Source: a virus
Lineage: Duplodnaviria > Caudoviricetes
Reading direction: 5' to 3' (one strand)
IMG/VR virus record: IMGVR_UViG_3300038675_001017
Span: 1 to 24,690 of that record
DNA: 24,690 bases
Positions 373 to 23,593 of this stretch are shown piece by piece. The stretch's first letter is position 1; every line of letters begins with the position of its first letter. The translations under genes were made by a program, and so were the position numbers. The notes under the pieces were generated by a model. That model was not told the origin of the DNA. It saw nothing but the letters and a program-made list of their open reading frames with translations, and did no database searches.

Positions 373-867
373 TTACAGACTTGCCTTTATCTGCCCAACG
401 ATTTCTTTGGTCTCAACACTTTGCTTATCCTTGAGGGCATTATGCAGGTCTTCATTTTCAGTCGCTTTGGACTCTTTGATGGCGGCCACGGTTTGGCGCA
501 TAGCATTTTTCCATTTCATCACAAGTTTGACCAGCCAAACCATTGTCCCGCCCGGAAACAAAATCAAGCCAGCCACTAAAGCCAAAATTGCCAGCAGGCT
601 AAGACTCGAAAACCACCTTCCGATTCGTTCACCCAGCGTTAAATTATGAGGTGTATTTTTTAATCCAACCTGAAGCGTCCTCTTGGTCTCTTCAACCACG
701 TAAGTTTTATTATCCGCTACAATAGCTTTCGGTGTCTTGACCTCTTCCTCTAACCAGTTATAAATTGTCTCCGGCTTTTTGGGTGTTACAATCTTGGGAA
801 AAGAAATCCCCGCGCATCCGGACAACAATAAACTGACGGCTAAGATCATCAGTATTTTTCTCATCAT
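373..867 (-). CDS. Lipoprotein with a second, internal transmembrane segment; candidate unimolecular spanin
   Basis: Signal peptide MMRKILMILAVSLLLSGC with lipobox LSGC, about 65 polar residues, hydrophobic stretch SLSLLAILALVAGLILFPGGTMVWLVKLV, then a charged helical tail. Start overlaps the upstream stop (ATGA). Confidence 0.6.
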   Translation of the reverse strand: MMRKILMILAVSLLLSGCAGISFPKIVTPKKPETIYNWLEEEVKTPKAIVADNKTYVVEETKRTLQVGLKNTPHNLTLGERIGRWFSSLSLLAILALVAGLILFPGGTMVWLVKLVMKWKNAMRQTVAAIKESKATENEDLHNALKDKQSVETKEIVGQIKASL

Positions 868-1853
868 TTTTCACCCCGCTTTTTATTGGTTGCAATCAGC
901 TCTTCATAAGCGCTGATAATTTCATCAGCATCGTAATCCATGCATTTTGTGTTGTGAGGACAATTCCAAATCCCGGTGTTGGGATTGGCGTCAAAAACAT
1001 AACTGTCCGGCCGGTGACAAAACGGGCGCGGGCATGCTTCCCGCGTTAAATTCTTGTTAGCCTCATACCCAAGTTTTTTGGGATGCGTCCCTCCCCAAAC
1101 AACAACTCCTTTTTTATCAAATACTGCCGCGGCATGTTGCAGGAAACTGTCAATGCCGATAAACCCTTCCGCATATTTAAGCAACGCAACAACTCCCCTA
1201 ACCGGAGTGTTAGGAAAAAACATCCGCTCAGCGCCCTGAATATCGGGAAAATTTTCATGCTGAACAACGCCGACTGTATAGTTCCGTGATACCAGCTTGT
1301 TGGAAATTTTTTGAGCGACGTTATGCGGCAATGATCTCTTATGCATCCTCATCAACGCGTCAAAAACAGCCATCTGGTCTTTTGACTGAGGAACAATCCC
1401 TCCAATCCATTGAAACATGACAAATTTCTTTTTGCCGTTGCCTGTTATTTTTTCAACATACAACTTGCTTGCCTCAAGCTCATTGTTCATAAAAAACATC
1501 TGTGGAAGAGCGCCTCGCGGCTCAATTCCGATCATCCGGCACCACACCTCAATCAAATGCCTGCTATCAAACATATAGCCATAATTCGTGTACGGCTCCA
1601 GTTTGATAACGTAGCTTTCCGGCGTAACGTAATCGTCATAAAAATACAAAGGGTTCCCGAAGTTAAATACTTTATACACATGCGGATTGTATAAAAATAT
1701 ATCCGGATACCCGGTGACAACAATTATCCGCTTGTCAGGAAACTCCTCTGCCAGCCGTTTTACTACTGCAGTTGAAGCAATAACTTTTCCGACACCGCCT
1801 TCGGCTACGAAAAGGATGTTTTTAATTTTTTTGTTTTTTATTTCTGCAATCAT
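864..1853 (-). CDS. Glycosyltransferase family 9-like (heptosyltransferase-like, GT-B fold) protein
   Basis: N-terminal NILFVAEGGVGKVIASTAVVKRLAEEFPDKRIIVVT and C-terminal FIGIDSFLQHAAAVFDKKGVVVWGGTHPKKLGY resemble the WaaC/WaaF signatures. C-x4-C-x18-C-x5-C near the C-terminus. Confidence 0.8.
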   Translation of the reverse strand: MIAEIKNKKIKNILFVAEGGVGKVIASTAVVKRLAEEFPDKRIIVVTGYPDIFLYNPHVYKVFNFGNPLYFYDDYVTPESYVIKLEPYTNYGYMFDSRHLIEVWCRMIGIEPRGALPQMFFMNNELEASKLYVEKITGNGKKKFVMFQWIGGIVPQSKDQMAVFDALMRMHKRSLPHNVAQKISNKLVSRNYTVGVVQHENFPDIQGAERMFFPNTPVRGVVALLKYAEGFIGIDSFLQHAAAVFDKKGVVVWGGTHPKKLGYEANKNLTREACPRPFCHRPDSYVFDANPNTGIWNCPHNTKCMDYDADEIISAYEELIATNKKRGEK

Positions 1854-1879
1854 GGTTGCCCTTTCTGTCTTGATGATTA

Positions 1880-4800
1880 TTAACTATATGCAATGGCCAG
1901 CCAGTTCACGCACCCGTTGGGATCCAGAATTGTCTGGGTCCCGAACGTATCCTGAGTGCTGTAAAAACTGCAATAGGCGCAACTCCCAGCCGCACCACTA
2001 ACGCAACAATAACAGTGATAGACTGTCCCGCTGACGCACACCTGAGCGCTCATAAAGTGATGAAAACATAAAAATCCGATACTGCACTGCTTCCATCGAT
2101 CTCTGAAGCAGGTGCATATTTTAAAATTGTCATGGTTATAGGAATTGTTTAAACTTTTCGTCGTACTCTGTGACCAATTTGTCTTTCCCGAGTAGGTCAC
2201 AGTCACCCCACAACACCCGGCACTGACAGATCCTGAAGACCCGTAAAGATACGAACTTTCATTGGTTAAAAATTGAACTTCTGTCCCAACGCAACCGCAA
2301 GAACGCGTGTAATGGTTTAAACAGTAATAAAGGCAATTCCCAAGATCATTCAAGTTATACGTCACATAACTGCAGTATGTATTCGGGGGTTTGCTTCCGG
2401 ACACAGTCACAATATCCGTATGCCCACAACAGCACGTCCATTGATTGCACGTGCCCGTACAGCAACAACACCATGTTTGATTCCAATTAATAGAACACCC
2501 ATTGACTGTTCTTGAACATAAATGACATGTGGTTGATCCGCTTGCGATACCGGAATCAACCCACGCAAAACTTTGACAAATCGGCATGACCTCCCAAACA
2601 CAGTTACCGGAAAAAACAATGTTACGGTATTCATCGTTTGTTGACTGCATTTGCCCGACAGATGCATGAGGCTGAATATAGGTATACTGCTGATAGCACC
2701 ATACCCCACTGCCCTGCGCACGATAACATATCCTGTAAACCAAACATCCATAATGATAATTCGCACACGCCTGATTGCACCAAAGCTGAAACCTTAACCG
2801 GACACACGTCTCGCAAACATTCGCGCACGTACAACAAACTGTCCCGAAATTTACATCATGAACAACGGCTGAACCCGATGATGCCGCTAGGGATAACTGC
2901 GCATGAACATCAAAACGATACCCATAATCCGTTGCGCAATTACAATAAAACTCAGGCGTAGAACTGTAAACATCCCACTGCTGAGTCTGATTAGCATAAT
3001 TCTGATCAAACGAATTCAGTTTGTTAATACCAACCATAATGTTCGGCTGAGTACGCCACCCGGGCAGGAAAACTGTATCTCCTGTACAGGCTGTGCCGGA
3101 ACATATTCGTTTAACATACGGCGTAGATAACCCAAGCTCATCGTGAAAGTACCATGACCCTGCAGACAAATACGAATAGCAACAATCACAGGAAGGATCG
3201 ACCAGTTTCATTGACTTAGCCACAACGCATCCGTCGCACACCTCAAATGTTTTGACACAGTTTGCGTCATATGTTTTAAAACTCGTTGAATCAAAAATCG
3301 TTCTGGCGCCAGTGGCACCCGTCTGAAACGTCACGCCCTGAATTGTCCCGGCTGTCAAACACCCGACATTTGACGTCAACGCGCTTAAACACGCGACATA
3401 AATTTTGCGTGCCGTAATAACATTGTCACCTATAGCATTCTCATCCAAACCCTCAAGTGTTACAGTTAAAGGATTTGAAAACGGCCCAACGCCATAAAAA
3501 TCATGGCCTCTGACCTTAATTTCAAAACGGTCAAACACCATAAACGAATCGCCCGCCTCCGGCGTAACCGGCCAGTTCCCGTCAATCGTAATCGTTCCAG
3601 TTGTGCCGTCAAAATCCAGAATCTGAACTTCCTGGCCTTCGTTAACGCCTGATGTTATGATAACGGCATCGCCGTTTAATAAATCATCATCCAATCCAAT
3701 AAGAGAAGACGATACCAGCGTTGTGGATGTTGCCGAGTCAACGTCACCTCCTCTGGCTTTATTTCCTTCAATGACAGCACCGCGGCCGCTTGCGCTTGCG
3801 ATCAACTCCTCCTCACCTGCCCACTCTCCTGTTTGAGATTTCCAGATTTCGTATTTATAAACATCGCTTGCCGCAAGATCATCCCACCAGATCCGCGCCA
3901 CGTTGAAAAACACATCAGCACCCAGATTGTTTGGCTTGCTTGGGACTTCATTAACCGGAGTTAATGAAACACTATACGTTGAATACTTACCCGAAGTGTT
4001 ATACGCCCTGAGATAATATGTGCCAACTTCTCTGGTCGCAGGGCTTAAGGTAAGTTTTGTAGCAAGCCCGCGATAAACCAGATTGACATCATCAACACCA
4101 AAATTCGTATCATTTAATCGAATCTCATATCCTGCCAAATCAGGCTCTGTATTAGGCGACCATGAAAGCGTTAGTACATCGCCCCATGAATACTGAAAAT
4201 TGCTGACCATATCCGGCTCAACATCTTTTCCGACAATCAAGACGCTGTCCGTCGGTGAATGGCTCAAACCATCCTCTACTCCGTTAAATGTTACCGTTAC
4301 GGCTTTGATATAATACGTGCGCCCCTTTTGGATATTTCCGGAAATAGTATATTCCCGCGCCTCAGTGTATCCGATCAGCTGATAAGTGTTTCCTCCATCA
4401 TCGGAAAGATAAATCTTGGCTCCTTTGTATTTATTAAGATTGCCGGAATCATTTGGATAATCAAAGTAAACATCGATTACGTTTTCAATCGTTCCATCCG
4501 GAAGCGTAACTGAACGTTCTGACGTATCCAAGTTTCGGACAACTGGAATTTCTGAATTTAAAGAAGAATAATTGCTGGAAGGAATAACGATCGCACTGTC
4601 ATCATAAATATTCTCATCGTATTCAATCGCTGATATCTCGACCTCATCCTTGTTGTTGATACTTAAACCAACAATCCGAAAAGGCTTAACGACCTTGTTA
4701 TTTTCACCAAAAACATAAATGTCATATTTCTGCGGCAGCTGGTTAAACGCTTGTGAAACACCCAAAACCGAATGAACTCCTGCCTCATTGGTCACAACCC

Positions 4801-5863
4801 GCTCTTCGATTGAATCATCAGCAAACCTGACTTGAACCTTGTATGTTTTATCCGACTCAATCGTTACCTCCTGATCGAGTGTGACTGAGCTGATCGCGCC
4901 CTCGATCGCCCGTCCGGAAAAGCCCCACTGCGGCACATCATGAGAAACGTTAATCACGTCACCCGCCTGACAGGCAATCGCATCGATCCCGCATTTTAAG
5001 GTAATACTGCGGTCAATATATTTGGCGACTTTAAGGGCGTAGCGCCCTTCACGCAAGGCATACGAGGTCTTTGTCACAAACACCCTGATAAGTTTTGTGC
5101 GCATGGGATCCCCATTAGCCAACGCATCTTCATCAATAACCGCGATCTTTTCCTGCTGATAATTTTTATCTTTATCCAGATACTGAACCTCAATAACGTT
5201 TGGAATATCCCTTAAAGATTTCCACTGCTGACTAAATCCTCCTTCGATAATATTTCCCATACCGAATAACTGAACCGGGATGTCGGGCTTATCAATACGC
5301 GCCTTGGCTGTTCCTTCCGAGAAGAAAATCAGCCCCCGAAATACCCCGGCTAACTGCATCAACAAATCCGGAACCCGCGCGGGGCTGTCAATCACAACAT
5401 CCATCCGGAAGCGTTTCTCATAACCTCCCTGCCCATCCTCAACCCTTTCCTCACAGTAGCGCGACATCTCAAGAAACAATTCATCGTCGATATTTTCAGA
5501 TGTTAAAAATTCTCCGATCCCGTAGCGCGAGCTTAAAAGCAAATCTTTTAAACACCAAACTGGATTGGCGCACCATTGATCCACATAACTGGATCCATCC
5601 CAACTACACTCCGCCTCATCACTGAATCTTTTATAAACTGAATTTTCAGAATCCCAGTAATAATTAAGCCATTCAACCTCATCTACACCGCACATAATTT
5701 TAGGAACACTGACCTTTTTGCCCCTGACAATACAGGTAAAATTAGGCATGTTGCCTGAAAGCTGTTCTGTTGCTAATGCCTTGATTCCGAGTTTCGCGGT
5801 ATTCGGATAGGAAAGGTCATCTGCCTTGATCTCATCAATATTGCTTAACGAAAGATCGCCCAT
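1880..5863 (-). CDS. Tail tip / central fibre protein (lambda gpJ-like), main part, with FNIII-like domains and a Cys-rich C-terminal region
   Basis: gpJ-type motifs LSYPNTAKLGIK, VRGKKV, WCANPVWCLKDLL..SRYGIG, YCEERVEDGQGGYEKRFRMD, GDVINVSH and EISAIEYDENIY. Three FNIII-like segments (YYIKAVTV, YYLRAYNTSG, FEIKVRGHD). In frame with the upstream ORF across a single TGA at 5936-5938. Confidence 0.9.
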   Translation of the reverse strand: MGDLSLSNIDEIKADDLSYPNTAKLGIKALATEQLSGNMPNFTCIVRGKKVSVPKIMCGVDEVEWLNYYWDSENSVYKRFSDEAECSWDGSSYVDQWCANPVWCLKDLLLSSRYGIGEFLTSENIDDELFLEMSRYCEERVEDGQGGYEKRFRMDVVIDSPARVPDLLMQLAGVFRGLIFFSEGTAKARIDKPDIPVQLFGMGNIIEGGFSQQWKSLRDIPNVIEVQYLDKDKNYQQEKIAVIDEDALANGDPMRTKLIRVFVTKTSYALREGRYALKVAKYIDRSITLKCGIDAIACQAGDVINVSHDVPQWGFSGRAIEGAISSVTLDQEVTIESDKTYKVQVRFADDSIEERVVTNEAGVHSVLGVSQAFNQLPQKYDIYVFGENNKVVKPFRIVGLSINNKDEVEISAIEYDENIYDDSAIVIPSSNYSSLNSEIPVVRNLDTSERSVTLPDGTIENVIDVYFDYPNDSGNLNKYKGAKIYLSDDGGNTYQLIGYTEAREYTISGNIQKGRTYYIKAVTVTFNGVEDGLSHSPTDSVLIVGKDVEPDMVSNFQYSWGDVLTLSWSPNTEPDLAGYEIRLNDTNFGVDDVNLVYRGLATKLTLSPATREVGTYYLRAYNTSGKYSTYSVSLTPVNEVPSKPNNLGADVFFNVARIWWDDLAASDVYKYEIWKSQTGEWAGEEELIASASGRGAVIEGNKARGGDVDSATSTTLVSSSLIGLDDDLLNGDAVIITSGVNEGQEVQILDFDGTTGTITIDGNWPVTPEAGDSFMVFDRFEIKVRGHDFYGVGPFSNPLTVTLEGLDENAIGDNVITARKIYVACLSALTSNVGCLTAGTIQGVTFQTGATGARTIFDSTSFKTYDANCVKTFEVCDGCVVAKSMKLVDPSCDCCYSYLSAGSWYFHDELGLSTPYVKRICSGTACTGDTVFLPGWRTQPNIMVGINKLNSFDQNYANQTQQWDVYSSTPEFYCNCATDYGYRFDVHAQLSLAASSGSAVVHDVNFGTVCCTCANVCETCVRLRFQLWCNQACANYHYGCLVYRICYRAQGSGVWCYQQYTYIQPHASVGQMQSTNDEYRNIVFSGNCVWEVMPICQSFAWVDSGIASGSTTCHLCSRTVNGCSINWNQTWCCCCTGTCNQWTCCCGHTDIVTVSGSKPPNTYCSYVTYNLNDLGNCLYYCLNHYTRSCGCVGTEVQFLTNESSYLYGSSGSVSAGCCGVTVTYSGKTNWSQSTTKSLNNSYNHDNFKICTCFRDRWKQCSIGFLCFHHFMSAQVCVSGTVYHCYCCVSGAAGSCAYCSFYSTQDTFGTQTILDPNGCVNWLAIAYS

Positions 5864-5935
5864 TTTATAGGTGCTCGTATCATCGGAAACCCTTGTGATC
5901 CTGATATCATACTGATCCGGATCCAGTCCGTCTTT

Positions 5936-6862
5936 TCAGAAAATCCGACGGACAGCAGATCGTGATTTAGCGTTGATCGTGGTTTCGCCAAGATCAATAT
6001 ATGTTGAGGCGCTATGCGGTTTATATTCGACTTTGTAGATAACACTCCACGTCTCCAGCGCCCCGGTATTCTGGTTTTGTTCATACAAACCGTTTAATAA
6101 AACCAGATGCAATTCAAAGGCTTCTACATCCAGAGCGGTTGTGGTGTAAATATAGGGATTGTCTTTCAGTAATGTTTGTGACTGGGAAATGAGATTATGC
6201 AGGTCACCAAAATTTGGAATAACAGTATCATCGTTTGTGCCAAGGCGCGGATATTGCATAATTCCGTCAAAGTTTTCAGCAGGATTGTCATTGATCTTTA
6301 AATCACTGATGCTTTCAATTTCACCTTCACATAATGCGAGGAGCACATTAAGATAATTTTTATCGCCATCCGTACTGACAAAACTGTTAATGATATTTCC
6401 GCCGATCATATGCTCGCCGTAAACAATCGGCACCGGCACACCAACTTCCTGAATTGTCTGAACGCCATCCCATCCATACGTCGGTGAACTTTCATCCAGC
6501 CCGTCACCGTTAGTGCCGTAATTCGGCGTTGATGGTTTTTTAAATGTAACAGCCTGATAAACGCTGTAAACTACAGAAGCGATCGTGACAACCGTTGTGA
6601 TAATTTTAAAAACCGCAACAATCGCCGCCCAGGTCGCCGGATCAAACTGAACATCAGGAACGATCAAAATTTCATCCTCATTATTAATTTTAATATTTAA
6701 ATCATCAACTCTTTGACCGGAAACAATACAGCGCATTCCCTCATGCCGGAATCCTGACCTTTCAAGATATTCTTTAACGCAAACATCCCGATTAAAATCC
6801 AAAGAGATTTCTTCTCGTCCATCAAAAGAAAGTAAATTGGGGATATGCTTAACGGTAATCAT
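5936..6862 (-). CDS. Tail tip protein N-terminal part (gpI-like ubiquitin fold plus gpJ N-terminus), ending at an apparently premature TGA
   Basis: Likely start MITVKHIP at 6862 overlaps the upstream stop. Contains DEILIVPDV, a hydrophobic stretch, SPTYGWDG, GVPVPIVYGE and LALCEGEIESI. The frame continues after the stop as KDGLDPDQYDIRITRVS into ORF 1880..5863. Confidence 0.85.
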   Translation of the reverse strand: MITVKHIPNLLSFDGREEISLDFNRDVCVKEYLERSGFRHEGMRCIVSGQRVDDLNIKINNEDEILIVPDVQFDPATWAAIVAVFKIITTVVTIASVVYSVYQAVTFKKPSTPNYGTNGDGLDESSPTYGWDGVQTIQEVGVPVPIVYGEHMIGGNIINSFVSTDGDKNYLNVLLALCEGEIESISDLKINDNPAENFDGIMQYPRLGTNDDTVIPNFGDLHNLISQSQTLLKDNPYIYTTTALDVEAFELHLVLLNGLYEQNQNTGALETWSVIYKVEYKPHSASTYIDLGETTINAKSRSAVRRIF

Positions 6863-7269
6863 ATGCGTTCTTTCAACCGGTAAAATCCTTCGATACAATA
6901 ATCCCAGCATTTATCCCTAAGCCGGGAAACAACAACGCCCTTGGTTTTATGACTGCAATGCAGAAATTTCCAGTCACTTAACACAACCCCGCAATGCGAA
7001 ACCACCCCCTTGCGCTTAAACAAAACAACGTCGAAAGGCTTATGGTGACTGACTTTTTTCCACTGCCTGTAATGGTTCTCAATGAAGTGATTTTTGCCAT
7101 TTTCAAACCATTTTTCCTCATAATCCTCTATATCAAACAACTCATACCCCAAATCCTGATAGACATTTTTGACCAAGCCGTAACAGTCCAGTGCATCCAT
7201 TGACCTGCCCCGATGCTTAAACGGAATGCCAAGATATTTATTGATAATTGTTTTCTCTTGATCCCTCAT
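6859..7269 (-). CDS. NlpC/P60-family tail tip protein (gpK-like, no JAB domain)
   Basis: YLGIPFKHRGR, LDCYGLV (catalytic Cys), SHCGVVL and FLHC (His residues). Likely start MRDQEK at 7269 overlaps the stop of the L-like gene. Confidence 0.9.
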   Translation of the reverse strand: MRDQEKTIINKYLGIPFKHRGRSMDALDCYGLVKNVYQDLGYELFDIEDYEEKWFENGKNHFIENHYRQWKKVSHHKPFDVVLFKRKGVVSHCGVVLSDWKFLHCSHKTKGVVVSRLRDKCWDYCIEGFYRLKERI

Positions 7270-18560: not shown

Positions 18561-19343
18561 TTATGATCTCAGCCATTCATCATAATTTCCTTTAAACTGT
18601 CTGTCTTTTCTGGCTTTTAGATATTTTTCTATATTCACATCCTTCTCAAAAGTGTTATCTTTGGCCTCCCAACTGATTATATTTTCTCTGTGAAAAATTC
18701 GTGGCTCTTTTCTAAAATGACAATACGCATACACATGCCCATCCTCAACAAAATAAATATCAATATCTCGCATCGTTTTTTCCCATTTCCAGTCTTCTTT
18801 ATTGCGCCGTTGATATTCAATGGAAACTACTTGCTTTTTCTCTGCATAAAATAAAGCATCTTTTTTGCGGAATCTTTTGCCTTTCTTTTTTATCGGGATT
18901 TCTTTTCGATCTTTTTTGGGGATGCCATCAAAATAATTTTCCCGATTTCCTTGGATGATATTTTTAACAGCAATAAATGTTTTCGTTCCCTCTTTGCAAG
19001 TCCTGCTATCCCAAATCATGGATGTTAAGCGTTTCTCATTAAGAATAAAACTGACTAACTGATTTTTTAATCCAATCGACATTTCTTTGTCAGGGTTGAT
19101 CTTAAGCCACACATTTTTTGTATAATCATATACGACACGAATTAAATGAACCCTATGACGATCTGCCAGTTCTATAATCCTTTTGGGGATAGTAATTCCT
19201 TCATCAACCAAAGGCTTAATATCTTTATTAAAAAAGGCTCGCTCTCTTGCACTGATATTAAAGTCCGCATCCGATGAGCTCTTTTTACTTGAACTTATTA
19301 AAATTATTACGACTAAAATTAAAATGAAGTATATTACCCACAC
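18561..19343 (-). CDS. Membrane-anchored WYL-domain protein (AT-rich moron)
   Basis: Likely GTG start at 19343 after AAGGAGG. N-terminal TM WVIYFILILVVIILI. C-terminal VVSIEY...RDIDIY...VYAYCHFRKEPRIFHRENI fits the WYL pattern. AT-rich (18/60 G+C at 18601-18660). Confidence 0.75.
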   Translation of the reverse strand: MWVIYFILILVVIILISSSKKSSSDADFNISARERAFFNKDIKPLVDEGITIPKRIIELADRHRVHLIRVVYDYTKNVWLKINPDKEMSIGLKNQLVSFILNEKRLTSMIWDSRTCKEGTKTFIAVKNIIQGNRENYFDGIPKKDRKEIPIKKKGKRFRKKDALFYAEKKQVVSIEYQRRNKEDWKWEKTMRDIDIYFVEDGHVYAYCHFRKEPRIFHRENIISWEAKDNTFEKDVNIEKYLKARKDRQFKGNYDEWLRS

Positions 19344-19377
19344 ATCAACCTCCTTCATTTTAATAATATACAAAAAA

Positions 19378-21446: not shown

Positions 21447-22041
21447 TTTGCTTCCCCGCAAATTGTTCAATAATGTAACGAATTTCCTGATCCAGAATTT
21501 CACAGATCACCTTGGGATCCTGCTGATACAATTTTGGCGCGACATGTTTCGGCAAACGTAAAAACCCCGACTTAATTCCACGAATCTGATTCTTAACGAT
21601 CGAAACATGATCCTCAAACGGAATAACCTCGCCTTCTTTTTGTTTAAGTTCAATTTCACTTAGCTTGGCGCGATTCTTTCGGTACTCTTTATCCCAGAAG
21701 TCCTTGCTGTTATCTTCCTTGGCCCCGCGCTTTTCATAAAACCACCTAAAAATCTCACTGACCCTGAACCGCGCAATCTCACCAGCTGCATCGCGAAGCA
21801 CCGGCATGCCCTGCTGAACATAACGCCGGATCATGCGCGGTGATTTTTCGAGATAAACACACAACGTCGCTAAATCTACCGTGCCGTCAATAACGCCTTC
21901 CGGCTTCTGCCCTGACTTTTCAAACTCTTCAAGTTCTTTAAGTTCTTTGGATGAAAGTGATCCTCGTTGCAACTTTTCCACAAGGGCGATGTAACGTTTC
22001 TTTTTCGCGATCTCAATAAGGTTGCTGTTTTTTTCATCCAT
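21415..22041 (-). CDS. terS: Terminase small subunit (Nu1-like)
   Basis: HTH LATLCVYLEKSPRMIRRYVQQGMP resembles the lambda Nu1 N-terminus, followed by coiled coil RAKLSEIELKQKEGEVI. Overlaps the start of terL. Confidence 0.88.
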   Translation of the reverse strand: MDEKNSNLIEIAKKKRYIALVEKLQRGSLSSKELKELEEFEKSGQKPEGVIDGTVDLATLCVYLEKSPRMIRRYVQQGMPVLRDAAGEIARFRVSEIFRWFYEKRGAKEDNSKDFWDKEYRKNRAKLSEIELKQKEGEVIPFEDHVSIVKNQIRGIKSGFLRLPKHVAPKLYQQDPKVICEILDQEIRYIIEQFAGKQSASKAGKRNP

Positions 22042-23338
22042 TACTTTCCCTTACCGCTTGTTTTCCGGAAAACTCCTTCCAGCGCTTGACCGCTACATCA
22101 CAAAATACAGGTTCCACCTCCATGGCAAAAACACGCCTGTTAAGCCTTTCACCTGCGATAATTTGTGAACCTGATCCACTAAAAGGTTCATAGCATACAT
22201 CACCCGGGTTTGTATGAACACGCATCGGAATAGCAAAGACTTCAGTCGGCTTAACCGTTGGATGATCAATGCCGGAATTGCGTTTCTTGCCCTCCCAGTC
22301 AAGCTCCCAGACATCCGTGTGATATTCAGGCGTTGCCGGATCCCCTGACCGCAAAAAATCAATCGTCCACACGCTTCCGATAGATTTGTTTTTTGGCTTG
22401 TAATCAGGTTTCTGCCCTTTTACCCACATCAAAAGGCACGGCTCATGCCTCCATGAATAAAACGAATAGGTCAAAATCACACACGGCTTGACCCAGACGA
22501 TTTCCTGATGAATCAAAATGCCGATATCCTTGCACACACCTTCAATATCAGCCCTGCGCTTTGACGCATGCCACATATAAAGAGCGGTTTTCTCATGAAT
22601 GTATTTGATGCCGACCGTTAAAAACTTTTTCATAAATTCAATCGCATCGGGTATATCTATTTCGTGATAAACATTCGACCAGTCACGGCCACCATTAGGG
22701 CGATCTTTTCCTGTATAATCCACGCAATACGGCGGATCCGTTGCAAACAAGCTTGCCGTATGCCCATCCATCAACCTCGCCACATCCTGCTCATTAGTTG
22801 AATCCCCGCATAAAAGCCGATGCTCTCCCAAAATCCAAAGATCACCCTTCTTTGTAATCGCCTCTTTGGGAGGTTCCGGGATATCATCAGGCAAGGTCTT
22901 TCCACTGCCCATATTTTCAACGCCCATATCCCCGACAGTCTCACGCAAGGTCTGCAGGCGTAAATTCAAATAATCATCGGCTGATTCTTTACGCAACCTC
23001 TCCAAAATCGGAATCAACGCGGCTGTCCACTGCCCAGCAATCTCTGCATTATTCAGCGTCACATTCATGGCTTGCTCCTGAACCTCATCCAGATCAACCA
23101 TGATCACCGAAACGGTTTCAATGCCATCCTCCTGCAAAACCTTGTACCGCTGATGCCCGGAAACGATGCGCATATTGCGCTGATTAACGATCAGAAGATC
23201 CACATACCCGAATTTTTCCAAGCTGTGTTTAAGTCCCGCATAAGCAGGTTCTGTGATTTCACGAGGGTTATATGGTGCCGGAAGGATGTCCGCGACCCTG
23301 ACCTCCTTAATCACTGGTTTTACGTTAATTTTTGCCAA
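22034..23338 (-). CDS. ParB/Srx-domain DNA methyltransferase (N6-adenine/N4-cytosine, beta class)
   Basis: PAPYNPR...IVSGHQR (ParB-like), then GEHRLLCGDS, motif IV DPPY, HPTVKP and motif I EPFSGSGS. Likely TTG start at 23338 after AAGGAGG. Confidence 0.92.
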   Translation of the reverse strand: MAKINVKPVIKEVRVADILPAPYNPREITEPAYAGLKHSLEKFGYVDLLIVNQRNMRIVSGHQRYKVLQEDGIETVSVIMVDLDEVQEQAMNVTLNNAEIAGQWTAALIPILERLRKESADDYLNLRLQTLRETVGDMGVENMGSGKTLPDDIPEPPKEAITKKGDLWILGEHRLLCGDSTNEQDVARLMDGHTASLFATDPPYCVDYTGKDRPNGGRDWSNVYHEIDIPDAIEFMKKFLTVGIKYIHEKTALYMWHASKRRADIEGVCKDIGILIHQEIVWVKPCVILTYSFYSWRHEPCLLMWVKGQKPDYKPKNKSIGSVWTIDFLRSGDPATPEYHTDVWELDWEGKKRNSGIDHPTVKPTEVFAIPMRVHTNPGDVCYEPFSGSGSQIIAGERLNRRVFAMEVEPVFCDVAVKRWKEFSGKQAVRESNG

Positions 23339-23434
23339 AACTTCCTCCTTTTTGCTCATTTCCTGATGTTTTTCATGAAAAAAATCCAAAAGTGATGGAC
23401 ATGGACATCGTTTTTTTTGACCACAATCACTGAC

Positions 23435-23483
23435 AACCCGCGCCTCGCCTGACCCTCGGCCCAACCGCCCCACGGAAGGACCC
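23435..23483 (-). other. Putative lambda-type cos site (cosQ plus cosN-like)
   Basis: Minus strand GGGTCCT (23477-23483), 34 GC-rich nt, then CGCGGGTT (23435-23442). Lambda, as I recall it, has GGGTCCT-35 nt-CGCGGGTT. Intergenic and upstream of a gpA/Nu1-type terminase. Confidence 0.7.
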
Positions 23484-23593
23484 AAAACCTTTTTGATCAA
23501 TAAGTTACTGATGCCGTGATGACAGCTGCCCCCAGCCAGTAAACCGCATGACGTATATCCCAATAGGATAGATAAACAATCGCGGCACACACA

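Follow-up and report, generated by a model that had tools for sequence, protein, structure and literature searches.

A phage tail-tip protein that ends in a Cys-rich region, with a glycosyltransferase-like gene directly behind it, raises the question of whether the enzyme acts on that region and what it would add to it. This arrangement was found in a stretch of 24,690 nucleotides of tailed phage DNA (Duplodnaviria; Caudoviricetes), hereafter the window, which is the whole of its source record, IMG/VR IMGVR_UViG_3300038675_001017. The two genes lie on the minus strand and encode a lambda J-like central tail-tip protein (1880..6910) and a predicted GT9-fold transferase of 329 amino acids (864..1853). 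They form a real, tightly coupled two-gene system that is undescribed in the literature searched; the mechanism is a proposal. A function of the enzyme for the Cys-rich tip, of whatever kind, is highly probable. Cytoplasmic S-glycosylation of the receptor-binding region by the enzyme, possibly with heptose, is moderately probable, judging from sequence comparisons and structure models.

The Cys-rich C-terminal module of J (1880..3391, minus strand) is the presumed receptor-binding end and presumed acceptor. It contains 53 Cys in 503 amino acids (10.5%), compared to 8 in the preceding 824 amino acids of open reading frame (ORF) 1880..5863. The 22 other ORFs of the window have 65 Cys in 6,140 amino acids (1.06%), and against that background the binomial P for the module is 4e-35. 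Reassignment of a codon to Cys across the genome was dropped as an explanation because the other genes have only this background level. Ser and Thr were ordinary, at 19.7% in the tip and 17.9% on average (range 14-25%) over the final 300 amino acids of 53 control J proteins, and Ser/Thr enrichment was dropped as a signal because the tip falls within the control range. The module matched no PHROG or NCBIfam family. A spacer of 26 nucleotides (1854..1879, minus strand) separates it from the ATG of the enzyme gene and holds a purine-rich stretch, putatively the ribosome-binding site. The original prediction, made from the letters of the window, had placed about 10% Cys in the last ~503 amino acids and a GT9-fold gene 26 nucleotides further on the same strand. 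Both held, the fold being recovered by AlphaFold, Foldseek, VIA and hhalign.

J was identified by phrog_31, PF13550 and PF24801 domains and by its position after L-, K- and I-like genes. These domains are found on both sides of an in-frame TGA (5936..5938, minus strand), which is an assembly error. T was read at plus-strand position 5938, giving AGA, in four of four sequencing runs, of which one may be the source of the window and the other three are from separate studies. The relative L085 also has AGA at the equivalent position. J is therefore one protein of 1,676 amino acids with its start at 6910 in place of 5863, and the nearest J-type homologues are about 1,630-1,750 amino acids long. 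A pseudogene, a split gene and recoding of the TGA were all ruled out by the four runs. The structure model of the tip was weak overall, with a predicted local distance difference test score (pLDDT) of 54.7. The best-modelled part is a beta-sandwich at about amino acids 994-1109 of the ORF (2537..2884, minus strand; block pLDDT mostly 67-89), which aligned to residues 83-207 of lambda gpJ (VIA Z 10.0, root-mean-square deviation 3.1, 116 aligned residues, the range including late model strands). A hypervariable insert at about amino acids 1120-1280 (2024..2506, minus strand) is the most Cys-dense part, with up to 11 Cys per 50 amino acids; it is poorly alignable among homologues and its pLDDT is mostly below 50. 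A viral fold search with the tip model gave no usable match, and nothing above 0.78 was found in the ESM Atlas.

The pairing of enzyme and Cys-rich tip was compared across related loci. A search with the single enzyme sequence gave no loci, and an alignment search gave 164, consisting of the best 80 of 223 viral, four of four genome and the best 80 of 269 metagenome matches. Individual loci from this and the other searches are cited by L number. Those with tblastn bits of at least 190 were classed as close. Duplicate removal left 43 close loci, six of which had no upstream DNA, and a Cys-rich upstream ORF was present in all 37 that remained, with 8.0-21.3% Cys over 150 amino acids. The module of the window was recognized in 31 of the 37. 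Where length allowed judging, it was carried on J-type proteins (14), proteins of about 1,000 amino acids (6) and one protein of 766 amino acids, so that at least three unrelated N-terminal carriers bear it. The other six Cys-rich neighbors failed to match the module when Cys was masked; L114, among these, is probably a diverged member. The enzyme locus in L001 adjoins contractile-tail genes. In the reciprocal direction 16 tip loci were found, four ending at a contig edge and all 12 with downstream DNA encoding the enzyme; ten of the 12 were contigs already counted and two were new.

Sister phages were used as controls. The best 80 of 229 loci found through the J N-terminus (50-62% identity) were taken, and 26 with a cut J were dropped. 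Among the 54 complete sister J proteins, 53 were without the enzyme in their flanks and did not exceed 3.3% Cys, while the one J with 15.3% Cys carried the enzyme. Two of the dropped proteins (L231 and L247) start a Cys-rich module on contigs without downstream DNA. Tail proteins next to the enzyme had been expected to be Cys-enriched relative to those of phages lacking the gene, and the 37 close loci and 53 enzyme-free J proteins bear this out. The control rows are not independent, falling into 24 clusters, and at least 1.5 kb of downstream DNA was available for 41 loci in 18 clusters. A Fisher test of the 14 J-type loci against 17 control clusters gave 4e-9, ignoring kinship. Enzyme identity and tip identity were correlated (Spearman 0.63), which shows linkage, not co-evolution.

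The enzyme belongs to phrog_8954, a family of unknown function. It scored 21.8 bits against PF01075, for which the gathering cut-off is 22, and 53 of 69 homologues matched that model at E<=1. The AlphaFold model (pLDDT 93) clearly has a predicted two-lobe GT-B fold nearest to WaaC and WaaF. The top Foldseek matches were WaaF, a Veillonella GT9, TibC and WaaC. VIA Z was 24.6, 22.0 and 21.9 to 3tov, WaaF and TibC, respectively, and 12 or less to other GT-B families. Alignment by hhalign to 16 canonical GT9 proteins gave a probability of 99.5. A search of PDB sequences returned weak WaaC matches with the single enzyme protein and none with the profile. In a tree of 68 selected rows the Lys/Arg enzymes stood apart from 16 lipopolysaccharide (LPS)-type GT9 proteins and TibC (SH-aLRT 95); the tree was built by a quick method and midpoint-rooted, and has long branches.

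The main departure from canonical GT9 enzymes is at the catalytic residue. Gly22-Lys23 aligned with a Gly-Asp pair whose Asp is invariant in all 16 canonical proteins, so the catalytic Asp is absent, and Lys23 (1785..1787, minus strand) occupies its place. Lys or Arg was found at this position in all 69 aligned homologues, in 126 of 132 non-duplicate loci (six unresolved) and in all cultured-phage members fetched, which define a phage clade with a GGxG[K/R] motif. In TibC the shared G-D motif holds Asp110, the base, the loss of which abolishes or largely reduces activity according to the available part of the TibC report (PMC4358343). Lys23 would correspond to Asp110 through this shared motif, since direct alignment to TibC spanned the C-lobe only. 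The donor site is largely kept. D235, S236 and H240 aligned with the canonical D-S-x-x-x-H and R173 is also retained; R173-S-L-P was in register with K-x-W-P by eye, and hhalign put the Lys across a gap. Donor-site residues were invariant or nearly so in 69 sequences at 32-79% identity. A four-Cys motif (C274/C279/C298/C304; 942..1034, minus strand) is placed like the iron finger of TibC and may bind metal. It was present in 40 of 43 close and none of 89 distant loci, and a similar motif occurs in the canonical GT9 consensus.

The Cys positions of the tip were compared across 40 tips. Among 243 well-aligned columns 99 had Cys somewhere and only one reached 90% Cys. Pairwise retention was 0.47 for Cys compared to 0.82 for Trp, 0.69 for Tyr and 0.63 for Gly, and Pro was also above Cys. 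Cys was exchanged with Asn (2.2x), Thr (1.9x), Asp (1.6x), Lys (1.6x) and Ser (1.4x), a pattern that suggests outward-facing side chains. Totals were odd in 22 of the 40 tips, and a relative of 84% identity differed by nine single Cys gains or losses. Because the Cys are mobile, exchange with polar residues and often total an odd number, they do not form a fixed disulfide or cluster pattern.

The occurrence of enzyme and Cys-rich tip together across related phages makes a sugar on the tip Cys likely. The base-less GT9-fold enzyme would encounter the tip in the cytoplasm, ahead of tail assembly or while it proceeds, and, if active, would transfer sugar onto about 50 mostly mobile Cys thiols. 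A thiol is more acidic than a hydroxyl and ionizes more readily. A catalytic base would thus be dispensable, with the cationic Lys or Arg probably helping, and the replacement of the catalytic Asp fits a thiol acceptor. A precedent is SenB, a GT-B selenium transferase proposed in the accessible text of PMC10891094 to work base-free since its acceptor is already ionized. On the fold and gene neighborhood the best guess at the donor is host ADP-heptose, possibly giving heptose on the thiols. The sugar coat would stiffen or shield the tip, through protease resistance and a lack of stray disulfides, or would tune binding to the host surface. The enzyme and Cys-rich module would travel as a cassette grafted onto different tail proteins.

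Several observations weigh against S-glycosylation of the tip. The loss of the catalytic Asp is also compatible with an inactive enzyme, and chloroplast NDH subunits of GT9 fold, which have a non-catalytic role, rank among the fold matches. The adenine-reading Arg286 of TibC aligned with Val221, so ADP-heptose is not established as the donor, and Trp305 of TibC aligned with His240. Over the whole module (421 columns) six columns had at least 90% Cys and 11 more had 70-90%. Cys columns also covaried more than controls, with a median best phi of 0.58 compared to 0.47 (range 0.39-0.55), and 4 of 40 had phi of at least 0.8 where 0.22 were expected. Removal of lineage axes lowered the Cys phi to about 0.4, yet the pair 1056/1086 stayed at 0.52, so a few disulfides or metal sites may exist and a minority of the Cys may be structural. 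All 44 tip homologues had 7.1-14.7% Cys in the last 450 amino acids and no Cys-poor homologue of the module was found among them, but the searches used a Cys-rich query and may have missed Cys-poor relatives. Enzyme absence in the control loci was judged in flanks of up to 9 kb. Among distant loci with 12 kb or more of flanking DNA, 25 of 44 had a neighbor with at least 6% Cys and 19 did not; for all distant loci the count was 31 of 89. At least one of the distant Cys-rich neighbors was not fibre-like, and in HTVC111P the enzyme lies behind a fibre with only 1.5% Cys. The original prediction that the enzyme decorates thiols of the tip is partly supported, by co-occurrence in both directions, by the unrelated scaffolds and cultured phages and by the fit of the Asp to Lys/Arg change. 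Its appeal to AAH/TibC survives as a fold relationship only, and some of the Cys it counted may be structural.

Four other explanations were weighed against S-glycosylation. The first is TibC-like O-glycosylation of Ser or Thr in the tip, the Cys being merely co-inherited for disulfide lacing after lysis or for metal binding. TibC itself modifies serines, according to the text available of PMC4358343, and the tail of phage Pam3 is stabilized by disulfides in what is accessible of PMC9942802. The tip has its 19.7% Ser and Thr, some of its Cys are conserved or covary, and the identity correlation of 0.63 is what linkage alone would give. The explanation is nevertheless unlikely. The general base for a hydroxyl is gone in the whole family, Ser and Thr are no higher than in enzyme-free controls, and TibA has no Cys in 989 amino acids. 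It also leaves unexplained why unrelated scaffolds next to enzymes of this one family have gained Cys. In bioreactor, sludge and biogas habitats oxidation is likely to be limited.

A second explanation keeps the Cys-rich tip as the substrate and changes the group, the enzyme adding another nucleotide-activated group, or a sugar on oxidized, persulfide or phosphorylated Cys. All of the co-occurrence evidence fits this equally. The Lys at the acceptor site could suit an anionic acceptor, weak P-loop-type matches were obtained for the GGxGK stretch, and genes for carbamoyltransferase, sulfotransferase and cupin proteins occur in the vicinity of some members. It is rated as rather improbable in view of the fold matches, which exceed those to other GT-B families by a wide margin only for heptosyltransferase-like GT9 proteins, and of the heptose-synthesis genes beside cyanophage members.

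A third possibility is that the GT9 fold is catalytically dead and helps the Cys-rich tip to fold, as its dedicated chaperone or by delivering metal. Chaperones of fibres are commonly encoded after fibre genes, the catalytic Asp is gone, the close clade has the four-Cys motif and NDH subunits are among the fold matches. Near-invariant donor-site residues across 69 sequences at 32-79% identity argue against it, as do a replacement of the Asp that is always basic, client folds that are unrelated, and a four-Cys motif missing from all 89 distant members; it is considered quite unlikely. That the enzyme is an ordinary phage glycosyltransferase acting on host LPS for superinfection exclusion, or on phage DNA, in an incidental neighborhood is very unlikely: GT9 enzymes mostly build LPS cores, glycosyltransferases of pelagimyophage tail-fibre islands are read in this way in the available part of PMC7029224 and 19 of 44 long-flank distant loci are without a Cys-rich neighbor, but 37 of 37 against 0 of 53 (Fisher 4e-9 for the 14 J-type loci and 17 control clusters, ignoring kinship) cannot be incidental and the Lys/Arg enzymes are separate from LPS GT9s in the tree.

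To place the proposed S-glycosylation among known systems, the pair was compared to other glycosyltransferases. WaaC, WaaF and WaaQ (CAZy GT9, PF01075) give the best fold and profile match and share the donor-site D-S-x-x-x-H, but the phage enzyme differs in G-K/R for the invariant G-D, a shorter N-lobe and its location in a tail operon. The BAHT family (TibC/AAH with TibA/AIDA-I; PDB 4RAP, 4RB4; TIGR04414; PMC4358343) shares the GT9 fold (TM-score 0.62-0.66, Z 21.9), a gene directly beside a beta-rich surface adhesin, many sites per substrate and four Cys in places that match the iron finger. It differs in having Asp110 in place of the Lys, a length of 406 amino acids in TibC compared to 329, and a TibA free of Cys where the phage partner is Cys-rich. 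The phage enzyme is viral, lies in a separate clade and scored 15.4 bits against TIGR04414, for which the cut-off is 200; the best E among 69 homologues was 8e-5. Its model begins with a short helix, has the first Rossmann strand at residue 12 and is without an N-terminal beta-barrel, which occupies residues 1-97 of TibC in the accessible text of PMC4358343. The TibC residue set Asp110, Lys230, Arg286 and Trp305 is not reproduced. BAHT enzymes assemble as a dodecamer ring and heptosylate Ser of an autotransporter, and no autotransporter was found among the window ORFs scanned. The enzyme is a GT9-fold relative outside the BAHT family. By analogy the phage pair may still work as TibC does with TibA.

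Glycocin S-glycosyltransferases of the SunS type are GT-A/GT2 enzymes and act on one Cys of a small, leader-bearing peptide. The enzyme here is GT-B and its partner is the end of a protein of 1,676 amino acids. SunS and SenB resemble the proposed activity in transferring sugar to sulfur or selenium, and SenB is also GT-B, but SenB acts on selenophosphate, and both are non-viral and outside GT9. The available part of PMC11242366 notes that protein S-glycosylation is rare. In mycobacteriophages, phage glycosyltransferases decorate the phage's own particle (Freeman et al. 2023, as cited in the accessible portions of PMC12619734 and PMC10877033). The sites there are at the C-termini of capsid and tail-tube subunits, as far as those portions describe, and not in a Cys-rich receptor-binding region; the pair here combines a single enzyme with dozens of candidate sites on each chain. 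No description of a system joining this enzyme with a Cys-rich tip was found in a literature search, subscription papers and supplements being outside its reach.

The wider family extends into cultured phages. Distant homologues, at about 30% identity, showed a looser tie to Cys-rich neighbors, most of which were Gly/Asn-rich fibre-like repeats. The Cys of these repeats are concentrated at a small number of variable positions, where Ser, Asn, Tyr and Arg also occur. The pairing was found in HJ05 (gp49/50) and the Vibrio phage SBP1 (gp066/067), and in the cyanophages P-SSM2 (304 and 306/307), S-CAM1 (224-226/222) and S-SSM7 (114-116/120). The Vibrio phages K479 and D491, which were chosen as negative controls, proved to have the enzyme next to a tail protein in which one stretch reaches 10% Cys. 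The 21 records matching S-SSM7 gp114 all came from enzyme-bearing phages; for one of them the enzyme was on a different contig with the same single-cell name. The cyanophage enzymes P-SSM2 gp307, S-SSM7 gp120 and S-CAM1 gp222 belong to the 'LPS gene' cluster T4-GC 302-308, where they are annotated as hypothetical. As in the window, the enzyme of this cluster lies beside Cys-rich genes in tail-fibre regions. The partners differ, being small Gly/Cys-rich proteins and not a J extension, and the cluster also contains heptose genes and a carbamoyltransferase, both missing from the window. Glycosyltransferases in tail-fibre islands are read as host LPS modifiers in the text available of PMC7029224 and PMC12801897.

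Heptose-synthesis genes were found beside the enzyme in P-SSM2, S-SSM7 and S-CAM1. In four enzyme-bearing genomes HldE domain I was over the cut-off in all four, and GmhA was over it in two and just under it in two. In L280 (13113-17513), L281 (13152-17354) and L262 (9229-16759) the cyanophage enzyme is followed by carbamoyltransferase and heptose-synthesis genes. P-SSM2 and S-CAM1 also have a cupin annotated as cysteine dioxygenase after the enzyme. The carbamoyltransferase, heptose-synthesis and cupin genes may tailor the sugar.

In its broadest form the proposal is that a base-less GT9 family S-glycosylates dozens of purpose-gained Cys on tips and fibres, giving a dense thioglycan coat in siphophages, myophages and N4-like phages, with hosts from Omnitrophota to Prochlorococcus and Vibrio. 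This is held to be evenly balanced between right and wrong. If true, this would be the first case of S-glycosylation in a virus and the first S-glycosyltransferase of the GT9 type, and the cyanophage 'LPS genes' would be recast as virion-decorating genes. Known protein S-glycosylation is mainly of single sites, and here tens of Cys would be modified. Multi-Cys modification of folded, beta-rich and sequence-unrelated proteins would be new GT9 chemistry, and such an enzyme could be a tool for making stable thioglycoproteins. A post-translational layer would be added to phage host recognition, and the retention of heptose and glycosyltransferase genes in the tail-fibre regions of marine T4-like phages would gain a testable explanation. 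A direct test is possible, since the pair occurs in cultured phages.

Variation around the close-clade loci was also recorded. Among 79 neighbors of close members Pfam recognized a single GT2, a single sulfotransferase and a single cupin, and nothing of a sugar-nucleotide pathway. Two close-clade enzymes have a sulfotransferase and a GT2 gene downstream (L113 11977-12786; L125 13336-14133). In L083 (1958-6459), and also in L092, the terminase large subunit is followed by an ORF of 567 amino acids that is the Cys-rich J end only, and then by the enzyme; these are apparently a deleted prophage that retained the two. ORFs that appear HNH-like by eye, with no Pfam match at 1e-4, lie between the Cys-rich gene and the enzyme in L010 (9339-9965) and L116 (2580-3227), and small secreted-looking ORFs do so in L081 and L008.

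Some sister phages without the GT9-like gene have a small Cys-rich gene (241 or 187 amino acids) behind J, followed by radical SAM enzymes (L255 6509-11082; L218 12574-16701; L240 12644-15897). The same layout was seen by ORF size and Cys pattern in L202, L205, L208, L223-L225, L244, L246, L253 and L256. The SPASM-type radical SAM enzymes scored nearest to the PapB ranthipeptide maturase model, below its cut-off. The sequences suggest that this locus is a second cysteine-plus-enzyme cassette in the same position behind J.

The window covers the late region of a lambda-like siphophage, with genes for terminase, portal, capsid, tail tube, tape measure and M/L/K-like proteins on the minus strand. 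J, the GT9-fold enzyme gene and a lipoprotein-like gene follow. Near-identical DNA was present in bioreactor, sludge and biogas-fermenter metagenomes. Close enzyme homologues were found in two metagenome-assembled genomes with Omnitrophota in the title (73% and 65%) and in one with Planctomycetales, and the host is likely Omnitrophota because of the former. Four strong matches to the enzyme were found in 401 genomes of the host phylum, and no true BAHT gene was over the cut-off in 61 of its genomes. The lipoprotein-like membrane protein (373..867, minus strand) has a lipoprotein signal and weak matches to spanin and Cor PHROGs (E 7e-4 to 0.04), and its ORF overlaps the enzyme stop codon by 4 nucleotides. 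It is likely lysis-related and may not belong to the two-gene system; no endolysin was recognized among the window ORFs scanned. An AT-rich ORF of 270 amino acids (18561-19373) with a weak WYL match (E 0.014) lies between the terminase and portal genes and interrupts the packaging genes there. Positions 22034-23590, which are upstream of the small terminase, encode a fusion of ParB-N and an N6/N4 DNA methylase.

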